Virus record (IMG/VR): IMGVR_UViG_3300013114_000583
Span: 32,001-96,000 of that record
Source of the DNA: a virus
Reading direction: 5' to 3' (one strand)
Length of the DNA stretch: 64,000 bases
Shown here: piece after piece, positions 5,858 through 32,145 of the stretch
How positions within the stretch are numbered: the first letter of the stretch is position 1
Layout: each line of letters begins with the position of its first letter
The notes under the pieces: model-generated
The model's database searches: none
Seen by the model: only the letters and a program-made list of their open reading frames with translations
What the model was told of the DNA's origin: nothing
Program-made: the position numbers and the translations under genes

Positions 5858-5926
5858 GAAAAATCGTACCTAAAATAGTAAAAACTTTCGATACAATCAA
5901 CCATGGATTGTTCTGAACTCTTGAAC

Positions 5927-6136
5927 TCACATCGGATCGGCACTGTAAGCGATTGGTGTTGAAATTACCAATAACTCTAAATCACCCTCATCGAACCATC
6001 GGTCACCATGCGACTGGTGCATAGTATGCCATCGCACGTAAACATTGCTCGCCCGATGAGGAAAATCGCGCACCGATTGAACCAAGCCAACCACATTGCG
6101 ACCATGACGAAGTCTAACCAGATCGCCAACTTTCAT
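5927..6136 (-). CDS. MKVGDLV-family SH3/KOW-like mini-protein (solo copy)
   Basis: MKVGDLVRL...GLVQSV...VYVRW...WFDEGDLELL. Confidence 0.8.
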   Translation of the reverse strand: MKVGDLVRLRHGRNVVGLVQSVRDFPHRASNVYVRWHTMHQSHGDRWFDEGDLELLVISTPIAYSADPM

Positions 6137-6139
6137 AAA

Positions 6140-6834
6140 ACTAAACTCTCGGTTTATGTTTGTGTTCCAAGTGAAGCGTTCGCTTCACACGAAAAATGCC
6201 AAGGGTTCCCAGCTTCCCTTGACTAGATGTGACCTAACGCTTACGCAACGATCCAACCGTTCTGCACTCTATAGAGCGGCTTACGATGCTCCGAAAAGCA
6301 GCTGGTCCCGTTCACATCCCCCACAATGGCATACAGCCTACTAGCTCGTCCCGCCTACTAGCTCGTCCCGCGCATATGCGCTCGGTGCAATTCGGCTCGG
6401 TGCAATTCGGCTGCATACCAAAATAAATCTAATGCCAAGCGTCGGAACACCCATGTCCGATCAAGGGCTTGTCTAGCCATGTTTTCCTTCACACTGGTAG
6501 CAACTCCAGTGTGACATTAAGCTCGAAGGTCTGCAATAAGATGCTGCGTTTAGTCACGCAATGCAGCCACTCGACATCAGAATCATTAAATCTAAACAGC
6601 ACTTGAGCTTGTGGAAGGTTTGCCGGCGTGCACAACGACTCACCTCGCAACCCAAGTCCAGACCCCATTGGCTTGTCGGCCTTCATGGCACCCCCTACGT
6701 TCTCGGGAGTGGGCACGATTCGAACATGCCTCTTGGTTTTACTGCTCTACACTGTTATCCATGACAAGTGATCAATCTTGCAGCACGGACAACACTCAAA
6801 TGCTGATTACGTTCAACGATCCTCAATTGTTTAT
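6140..6834 (-). ncRNA. candidate large structured non-coding RNA (~650-700 nt), family unassigned
   Basis: Perfect promoter upstream; no credible ORF; about 10 helices, several needing G-U pairs possible only on the minus strand; UUCG loop, T-loop and two GAA/AGUA loop-E motifs; ends approximate. Confidence 0.7.
6336..6409. repeat. paired tandem duplications around a palindrome
   Basis: GCCTACTAGCTCGTCCC x2 (6336-6369), GCGCATATGCGC (6370-6381), GCTCGGTGCAATTCG x2 (6380-6409). Confidence 0.95.
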
Positions 6835-6840
6835 GTGTAT

Positions 6841-6869
6841 ATTATACAGGAGCTTTCTGCTTTTGTCAA
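6841..6869 (-). promoter_or_regulatory. consensus sigma70 promoter driving the candidate ncRNA
   Basis: TTGACA-17-TATAAT with extended -10 TG. Confidence 0.9.
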
Positions 6870-7804: not shown

Positions 7805-7864
7805 GAAAAAAATGTAGGCAGATGCAAGTTTATTTTACCCACACCTACCTACATTTACCTACAT

Positions 7865-8311
7865 TTACTCGTTACCACAATTAATGTCAATTGATAGCGG
7901 TTGCGCTTCGGGGCGTGGCGGGACCCGAACAGTCAATAAACCATTCTCAAATGATGCAACAGTTCCGGAAAGATCCAGATTATCATCATAATTTACATAA
8001 GTGCGCTTAAAGGCGCGTTGGGCAATGCGTCGGTTTGGCCGTTCTGTAGGGTGATGAATAGCATCAGCTGAAACTGTAATACTTCGTTTGGCTGGCAAGA
8101 CATCGACGGTCAAATCCTCCTTGGTGAACCCTGCAAGAGCAAATTCAAGCACGGTATGATCATCCTCATCACGATAAATGTCAGCCACTGGATAGCCAGA
8201 TGTTGACGCTTCGAGATGACGTGGAAAATCGCTAAACAAGTTTTCAAACACATTGGCGAGCGTGGTGTTGCCCAATAAACCTGGGCGAGTGGATAGTGTA
8301 ATTGCATTCAT
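7865..8311 (-). CDS. hsp20: small heat-shock protein, Hsp20/IbpA family
   Basis: YPVADIY..LEFALAGFTKEDL..IAQRAFKR..ASFENGLLTVRVP; start 8311 after AAGGAGG. Confidence 0.92.
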   Translation of the reverse strand: MNAITLSTRPGLLGNTTLANVFENLFSDFPRHLEASTSGYPVADIYRDEDDHTVLEFALAGFTKEDLTVDVLPAKRSITVSADAIHHPTERPNRRIAQRAFKRTYVNYDDNLDLSGTVASFENGLLTVRVPPRPEAQPLSIDINCGNE

Positions 8312-15230: not shown

Positions 15231-15713
15231 CTAAGTATCTTCGTCGGTATCTTCGTCGGTATCTTCGTCGGTATCTTCGTCGGTCTGAATTTCGACTAAC
15301 TCAATCTTAAAATTCAAATCCTTACCCGCCATCGGATGATTAAAATCAATAGTGACATTCTCTTCTGATTCGTTCAATATAGTGCCCATAACAGGGCCGC
15401 CTGCAGGGTTTGTTCCATGAACCACGGATCCTTTTACAAACGGAAAATCCGGCGGAAACTGTTCCTTTGGTACCTCTTGAATCGCCTCTGGGTGATGTGG
15501 GCCATATGCCTGATCGGAAGTTAACGTAATCTCTTTCGTTTCCCCCACAGTCATTCCTAGAACATTCTCTTCAAATCCGGGGATCATCATACCTGCTCCA
15601 AGCGTGAAACTAATTGGCTCCCCTCTGTCAAATGAACTGTCAAACTGTTCGCCGTCAGGGAACGTGCCCCTGTAGTGTACCTGTACCGTGTTTCCATTCT
15701 CTACTTTACTCAT
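15231..15713 (-). CDS. FKBP-type peptidyl-prolyl isomerase, SlyD/SlpA-like
   Basis: VQVHYRGT..G.QFDSS..MIPGFEE..AYGP..IDFNHPMAGKDLNFKIELV. Confidence 0.93.
   Translation of the reverse strand: MSKVENGNTVQVHYRGTFPDGEQFDSSFDRGEPISFTLGAGMMIPGFEENVLGMTVGETKEITLTSDQAYGPHHPEAIQEVPKEQFPPDFPFVKGSVVHGTNPAGGPVMGTILNESEENVTIDFNHPMAGKDLNFKIELVEIQTDEDTDEDTDEDTDEDT
15235..15284. repeat. 12-bp tandem repeat x4 encoding the acidic tail (TDED)4
   Basis: GTATCTTCGTCG, four perfect copies. Confidence 0.95.
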
Positions 15714-31794: not shown

Positions 31795-32145
31795 TTAATG
31801 AGAGTCCATGCTTATGCTATAAGAAGATAACTCTCTTTTTAACATTCTAATACTTTGATAACATGATTTGAGAGACATAAGGCTAATTGGATCAGCTCGA
31901 TATATATTTTCTTCTACCTGGTTATTCTCTTCAAATATAATTCTTAGTGTTGTTTCTGCGAGCTTTAAAGAAGACACAAGCTCGCATGTGATATTAATTG
32001 CATCTTGGTTATTAGCAACCACCACTGTAGAATTCAGAAGATCATTTAAAATTTTATAGCTTTTTTGCATACCTAAGTCAAGATTGCCAAACACAGACAA
32101 AGTTTCAGCCTTCTTAATCAGGAATTCTTCCTTATCCTCCGACAC
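31795..32145 (-). CDS. hypothetical protein
   Basis: 116-aa helical ORF. Confidence 0.65.
   Translation of the reverse strand: MSEDKEEFLIKKAETLSVFGNLDLGMQKSYKILNDLLNSTVVVANNQDAINITCELVSSLKLAETTLRIIFEENNQVEENIYRADPISLMSLKSCYQSIRMLKRELSSYSISMDSH

Follow-up and report, generated by a model that had tools for sequence, protein, structure and literature searches.

The window analysed here is a stretch of 64,000 nt (positions 32,001 to 96,000) from the IMG/VR virus record IMGVR_UViG_3300013114_000583, a 139.8-kb record that is 77% complete and derives from an uncultured marine phage of about 190 kb. Among its genes are those for tRNAs, a chaperonin, a class II ribonucleotide reductase, a split PolA and DnaB. 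More than 580 IMG/VR contigs, several of them complete at about 190 kb, carry a DnaB about 70% identical to that of the record; the closest DnaB of a cultured phage reaches 38% identity at most. On the minus strand of the window lies a putative non-coding transcription unit composed of separable modules (Table 1), in which a long hairpin, here called the XY arm, stands between a promoter matching the sigma-70 consensus at 12/12 positions and a terminator-like hairpin. The promoter region is kept upstream of the locus in the related loci L011, L111 and L113. GC content is 51% in the locus and 42% across the window. A 75-aa frame was considered as a gene and rejected: relatives match it only in separate nucleotide-level blocks, and L111 has a 90-nt module inside the frame. 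Megablast and blastn searches of GenBank phages gave no match to the locus. Against Rfam 15, only four tRNAs in the window attain the gathering score; positions 5900-6800 have no credible match at E values up to 10, and the related loci L012, L018 and L019 have none at E values up to 1. The neighbouring small genes belong to no family found in Pfam, and using the 69-aa gene downstream as a search handle returns distant matches only, which lack the RNA.

Table 1. Features of the predicted non-coding locus and of related loci (window positions unless a locus is named)
Feature	Position or locus	Strand	Basis or remark
Sigma-70 promoter TTGACA-17-TATAAT, predicted driver of the non-coding RNA locus	6841..6869	minus	12/12 consensus match
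Putative non-coding transcription unit, about 640 nt, with separable modules A/B, C, XY hairpin and D	6195..6834	minus	no conserved ORF
Module C, segment just upstream of the hairpin	6425..6584	minus	89-91% nucleotide identity to L010, L111
Outer stem, 5' strand UGGUAUGCA	6412..6420	minus	9 pairs with 6335..6327, two being G.U
X1, outer 15-nt unit GCCGAAUUGCACCGA	6397..6411	minus	partner Y2, from the compensatory change in L111
X2, inner 15-nt unit GCCGAAUUGCACCGA	6382..6396	minus	partner Y1
Apical stem-loop GCGCAUAUGCGC (GCGC-AUAU-GCGC, palindromic)	6370..6381	minus	RNA fold
Y1, inner 17-nt unit GGGACGAGCUAGUAGGC	6353..6369	minus	sequence
Y2, outer 17-nt unit GGGACGAGCUAGUAGGC	6336..6352	minus	sequence; partner X1
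Outer stem, 3' strand UGUAUGCCA	6327..6335	minus	one U.G pair is U-A in L111
Module D, multi-helix RNA with terminator-like end hairpin, loop GGAAG-N-UGGGAACC	6195..6324	minus	covariation
Terminator-like stem followed by UUUUU, end of module D	6198..6213	minus	helix covaries in alignment A2
Module D, related loci	L011:3094-3199, L012:1390-1495, L016:9289-9463, L017:8407-8524, L018:419-551, L019:4155-4288, L102, L106, L108		
XY arm, 2:2 form	window, L111		outer stem of the UGGUAUGCA type; X unit 15 nt
XY arm, 1:1 form	L012, L113/L115, L114/L117, L119		outer stem G(A/G)CACACA / UGUGUGUC; X unit 16 nt

Read along the minus strand from 6420 to 6327, the arm has the layout UGGUAUGCA-(15 nt)x2-GCGCAUAUGCGC-(17 nt)x2-UGUAUGCCA, with 100% identity between the copies of each repeat; the minus-strand sequence thus agrees exactly with an earlier reading, made from the sequence alone, that a 15-nt unit (X) and a 17-nt unit (Y) are each perfectly duplicated. 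Perfect tandem duplications with a period of at least 10 occur at four loci in the 64-kb window, and X and Y are two of these, 10 nt apart. The minus strand is predicted to fold into a single nested rod (-37.5 kcal/mol; z of -2.1 against shuffled sequences, a modest value). The plus strand folds poorly, no better than shuffles (-25.7 kcal/mol, z of +0.6), since several pairs of the rod are G.U. Several homologs also have G.U pairs in their stems, which would become C.A on the opposite strand. One module sets an X strand of 15-16 nt against a Y strand of 17 nt, in the order 3-bp helix, loop-E-type GAA/(A)GUA loop, GC:GC step, 1x4 loop (A opposite ACGA), CC:GG step and 2x1 loop. Watson-Crick pairs account for only about half of the module positions, and the loops break the helix every 2-3 bp. 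Two other readings of the hairpin were discarded. The A/ACGA loop is not a kink-turn, as it has a single possible G.A pair. Nor does the hairpin look like an intrinsic terminator: six U residues follow the arm only in L113/L115, the corresponding sequence being UUGUGG in the window, UUAAUG in L111 and AAGCCC in L012.

Homologs were sought with a pattern (GCACCGA, a gap of 5-35 nt, then GGGACGAGCUAGUA) that requires only the last X beside the first Y and is able to catch 2:1, 1:2 and 3:3 forms too. The pattern fixes 21 core positions, and invariance at those positions is partly ascertainment. Six distinct hairpin sequences are available, that of the window and five others from marine phage contigs; a BLAST search of five related phage records found one homolog, L012 (the same as L015, L112 and L121), and the pattern yielded additional true homologs from metagenomes. 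Copy number, for which the sequence-only reading implied agreement between the two arms, does agree: four sequences are 1:1, two (window and L111) are 2:2, and none is unmatched. Pattern scans of the viral, metagenome and species-genome collections found no 2:1, 1:2 or 3:3 arm, and a scan of IMG/VR for tandem X-X junctions found no additional locus. The outer stems of the 1:1 relatives read GACACACA/UGUGUGUC or GGCACACA/UGUGUGUC. Between the 1:1 and 2:2 types the unit cores are near-identical, although no alignment is possible for the outer stems, the apical loops or the flanks.

The second 2:2 sequence, L111 (Ga0310342_100363899), is collinear with the window at 78-94% nucleotide identity. 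Since it comes from a separate assembly, about 9% different, and has the same layout, the 2:2 form must predate the split of the two phages, and an assembly artefact behind the repeats of the window is very unlikely. The two phages share one duplication history, so the matched copy number amounts to a single evolutionary case together with the lack of unmatched forms. Between the window and L111 the repeat units differ by 3 changes in 64 nt, which is not clearly below the divergence of the flanks. Searching with a covariance model of the arm (R2) recovered it from 1 of 40 related phage records and a single time from this genome; the arm must therefore be dispensable. Several matches from the searches were set aside. 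Five exact 17-mer matches in IMG/VR (L002-L006) are chance matches in unrelated coding DNA, and the metagenome pattern matches L109, L110, L116, L118 and L120 are likewise chance matches in coding DNA. Among 185,579 species genomes the pattern has a sole match, the L012 phage, binned into a Legionellales MAG. This contig (L121, PBLX01000048.1) is an 84.5-kb member of a "Legionellales bacterium" MAG, and the roughly 950 bases read around the arm and module D are those of L012. In all likelihood a phage contig was binned with the MAG here, and it gives no evidence of the host.

Substitutions among the homologs follow the predicted pairing. In an alignment of the six sequences (A3), 97% of cells are standard pairs, as against 26-41% when the partner strand is slid by 1-3 columns, and RNAalifold predicts the same helices independently. 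Four pairs in A3 have changed on both sides. Two of these turn ACGC:GCGU into ACCA:UGGU beneath a conserved GAGA loop, the third is the closing pair of the apical helix (C-G, U-A or G-C), and the fourth is the module-closing pair beside GAA (C-G or U-A). The complete 2:2 structure can be compared between the window and L111, and there 100% of pairs are kept. Relative to the window, L111 has a joint change at X1 position 2 and Y2 position 16 (C-G to U-A), a change of C-G to U.G at X1 position 3, a compensatory G-C to C-G in its apical stem GCCCACGGGC and one U.G to U-A in the outer stem. The joint change is the most telling of these, as it shows that the outer 15-mer pairs with the outer 17-mer, and therefore that the duplications jointly add one nested module, which bears out the earlier proposal that two matched duplications lengthen the arm by one module. 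The earlier description of an RNA helix is borne out as well, by the strand-specific fold and the compensatory changes. Together these comparisons indicate that the hairpin is a real RNA structure and a so far undescribed element.

The identity of the GAA/(A)GUA loop is less clear-cut. All 8 X/Y pairs in the six distinct sequences set GAA opposite AGUA. The search pattern had AGUA among its fixed positions; GAA(U) in X lay outside it and is invariant all the same. AGUA/GAA is one of four sequences derived for the sarcin-ricin motif (PMC1865062). The window has C-G as the pair that would close the sheared G.A; the outer module of L111 has U.G, L113 has U-A, and L012, L114 and L119 have C.A. An alternative register has a U7-A11 pair and a symmetric 3x3 GAA/GUA loop; the energy model prefers it in the 1:1 forms, where the extra A of X pairs with U10. 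Loop-E geometry, which the sequence-only reading assigned, is thus plausible from the invariant GAA opposite AGUA, a canonical sequence, but the closing C.A of three relatives calls for reserve, and the 3x3 register closed by U-A appears equally possible. Both the bulged-G and the 3x3 registers belong to the loop-E family.

Known members of that family are arranged differently from the XY arm. Both the sarcin-ricin loop and eukaryotic 5S loop E have AGUA on the 5' strand and the motif turned towards the hairpin loop; in the sarcin-ricin loop it is stacked directly under a GAGA tetraloop closed by C-G. The arm shares with them 5'-AGUA-3' opposite 5'-GAA-3' and a would-be sheared G.A beside a helix (of 3 bp in the arm), but its polarity is inverted (GAA is on the 5' strand, and the would-be sheared pair lies towards the hairpin base), and its motif is repeated at 15-17-nt spacing. 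The apical loop of the window is AUAU on a GCGC stem, about 25 nt away, with no abutting GAGA; the GAGA loops of L012, L113 and L119 are on a distal 4-bp stem. The further suggestion of the sequence-only reading, a sarcin-ricin-loop decoy for ribotoxins, finds no support, given this inverted motif and the lack of an abutting GAGA loop in the window. Bacterial 5S rRNA loop E consists of two back-to-back GAN/GUA submotifs and is bound by L25. It resembles the alternative register (3x3 GAA/GUA closed by U-A, two loops in one helix), but in the arm the submotifs repeat directly at a distance of about 1.5 helical turns, are neither adjacent nor inverted, and have no rRNA context. No L25 gene was found in the phage record (77% complete), and the same record has no match to TROVE (Ro60/Rsr) or RtcB. 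A reading as a Y RNA of the YrlA type was rejected, there being neither Ro60 (Rsr) nor RtcB in that record and no Rfam match.

The element that follows the arm, module D, is more widespread. With a covariance model (R1) it was recovered from 9 of 30 related phage records, and it has one match in this genome. The module is 90-175 nt long, with an invariant 5' GUGGGG, a covarying long-range helix, a UGC-GUAA-GCG hairpin and a terminator-like hairpin of conserved loop sequence, and it often has its own consensus promoter. In a seven-sequence alignment (A2), 18/31 predicted pairs show double compensatory changes. Module D has no Rfam match and appears to be a small-RNA family of these phages that was not described before. 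Its company varies from one phage to the next. It stands alone behind its own promoter in L019 and L106, behind a different 5' hairpin in L017 and L018, behind the XY arm in the window and L012, and behind the arm plus a module E in L114 and L119. In L102 it follows a tRNA plus module E, and the tRNA is at the place that the arm occupies in L114/L119. The other modules are shuffled as well: L111 keeps the arm with a different 3' module, L011 joins module B straight to D with no arm, and in L010 the RNA stops after module C, its U-rich end running directly into the next promoter with no hairpin. A 90-nt hairpin module is common to L111 and L010, and an additional 5' module to L111 and L011. Because the arm is found beside different neighbours, it must be a self-contained unit. 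From these arrangements, the more widespread module-D RNA can carry the arm as an optional accessory on its 5' side, in a cassette-shuffled locus.

The reading that we consider probable is of an XY arm under selection for structure and recognition, with a doubled number of modules; the structure is well supported, and binding is what we infer from it. The arm would be an autonomous rod-like domain of an early non-coding RNA, presumably transcribed by the host polymerase. On the branch that leads to the window and L111, each of the two units would have been duplicated in tandem. Duplication of X-loop-Y in a single step would yield X-L-Y-X-L-Y, not X-X-L-Y-Y, and a template-switch origin was rejected, X and Y not being complementary. 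Since no single event gives X-X-L-Y-Y and a template switch is excluded, two events are needed. The units are flanked by microhomology of 2-3 nt (AGC...AGC for X, GC...GC for Y), a pattern compatible with replication slippage. Most likely, then, two slippage events took place at these microhomologies, and the second restored the rod; the presumed order is that it repaired a bulge of 15-17 nt that the first had opened. G-C, C-G opens the module and always opens the capping helix too (the apical hairpins of relatives begin GC and end GC), so a second copy stacks in register. The outcome would be an arm longer by one module, with its invariant non-Watson-Crick loops doubled. Invariant loops between covarying helices may form a specific recognition surface for a protein or another RNA, and the doubled module would then offer two predicted sites on a longer, rigid, irregular rod. 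The repeated protein-binding site of the sequence-only reading is in this sense one that we infer too. A bolder version, which is speculative and on balance unlikely, would have this widespread marine clade of phages of about 190 kb express, from consensus early promoters, a toolbox of interchangeable small-RNA modules (tRNA, XY arm, C, D and E). The arm would be a valency-tunable sponge or decoy for a host RNA-binding protein or a defence nuclease that binds loop-E-type RNA, and matched duplication would adaptively add a binding site while leaving the fold intact.

It seems unlikely that the hairpin is instead a processing or stabilising signal, such as an RNase III-type site, that splits upstream modules from a downstream small RNA and leaves a protective 3' hairpin behind. 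RNase III sites in T7 early transcripts leave such a hairpin. The arm is placed downstream of protein genes and ahead of further RNA modules in L012, L114/L117 and L119 (directly after the stop codon in the latter two, after a spacer of about 60 nt in L012), the whole locus is a chain of separable modules, and the element at the arm's place in L102 is a tRNA, classic processing punctuation. However, a helix broken every 2-3 bp by 3x3/4x3, 1x4 and 2x1 loops would be a poor double-stranded substrate, invariant loops with variable stems are more typical of specific recognition, and doubling of the module has no obvious use for cleavage.

Quite unlikely, in our view, is a decoy or sponge that mimics a host loop-E RNA (5S loop E or the sarcin-ricin loop) and titrates a host protein or defence nuclease, with doubling to raise its valency. 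Every copy carries the loop-E-type signature, and the locus is early, accessory, cassette-like, under a strong promoter and set among small variable genes. Early regions of small variable genes are the usual habitat of phage host-takeover and anti-defence functions. Against this, the motif points the opposite way from that of the sarcin-ricin loop or eukaryotic 5S loop E, with no adjacent GAGA in the window, there is no Rfam similarity, and no cellular look-alike turned up, the one match in 185,579 species genomes being the same phage in a MAG.

We give equally little credence to the hairpin as a structural spacer with no specific partner, in which near-neutral slippage was kept once a second event had restored a tolerable fold. 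Such a spacer would account for the absence of the arm from 39/40 related records and, at the same locus, from L010 and L011, for the single duplication history, and for a unit divergence between window and L111 (3/64 nt) that is not clearly under that of the flanks. It fits less well with unit cores that are near-identical in the 1:1 and 2:2 types despite unalignable surroundings, and with stem substitutions every one of which preserves pairing. Finally, an element acting at the DNA level (iterons around a palindrome) or as the 3' end of a 40-aa gene with AELHR duplicated is very improbable: direct repeats do flank a 12-bp palindrome, and a Shine-Dalgarno-like GAAGGA precedes an ATG at 6480 whose frame spans both X copies (15 nt = 5 codons) and stops at TAG in Y1, but direct repeats are missing altogether from most homologs, L010 and L111 read GCG in place of the ATG, the 1:1 relatives are thrown out of frame by a 1-nt insertion in X, and the G.U pairs and compensatory changes are strand-specific.

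The reading we prefer, a selected arm with a doubled module, has partial precedents. GOLLD, ROOL and the T4 stable RNAs C and D are large or stable phage non-coding RNAs near tRNA genes. The present locus is like them a structured phage RNA with a predicted promoter in a region with tRNAs (a tRNA replaces the arm in L102), but Rfam has no match to it, and its architecture is one of small modules in a row that can be exchanged. In viroid rods, duplications (CCCVd, CEVd D-104) and insertions (CbVd-3 versus CbVd-1) affect both strands and keep the fold (PMC3185485). The XY arm shares this coordinated lengthening of both strands. The viroid duplications arise in RNA replicons and are attributed to a jumping RNA polymerase, whereas the arm is a DNA-phage element in which two short, non-complementary units were each duplicated in tandem as DNA. 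Template-switch mutations can create or repair RNA hairpins and so change both stem arms coordinately (PMC8794818). A template switch, however, copies the reverse complement of one arm, whereas X and Y are 15 and 17 nt long and about half non-Watson-Crick. For a non-coding RNA of a DNA phage, we know of no account of both strands of an RNA rod being lengthened in concert, and full-text literature searches found none. What appears to be new here is thus the matched doubling in a DNA-phage non-coding RNA, along with the uncatalogued RNA family; lengthening of a viroid rod was known.

The arm is a clean case from nature of an irregular RNA helix with many non-Watson-Crick pairs that grew by one whole module, through coordinated duplications on both arms, and that compensatory mutations have since preserved. 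This is direct evidence of selection on the module as a unit. The locus also adds an uncatalogued modular non-coding RNA family, with predicted strong host-type promoters, in an abundant lineage of uncultured marine phages. If the arm binds a host factor, its 1:1 and 2:2 forms are ready reagents for finding the factor and testing valency.

Several smaller features of the window deserve mention. At 15235-15282 a 12-mer (GTATCTTCGTCG) stands in four perfect tandem copies within the minus-strand ORF 15231..15713, and the other perfect tandem repeat with a period of at least 10 is a 10-mer at 7846-7865. In the 5' part of the predicted RNA, at about 6712-6730 on the minus strand, GCAUG-UUCGAAU-CGUGC resembles a tRNA T-arm; the segment is identical in L111 and differs in L011 by a single C-to-U at the final stem position, and neither ARAGORN nor the Rfam tRNA model calls a tRNA there. 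Just 3' of the RNA locus, at 5927-6136 on the minus strand, is a mini-gene for a 69-aa protein (MKVGDLV...) that has no Pfam family and is absent from the otherwise collinear L111. Between the terminator of module D and the ribosome-binding site of the next gene lies an extra hairpin, GUGAAGCG-AA-CGCUUCAC (6165-6192, minus strand), which is partly conserved in L111.
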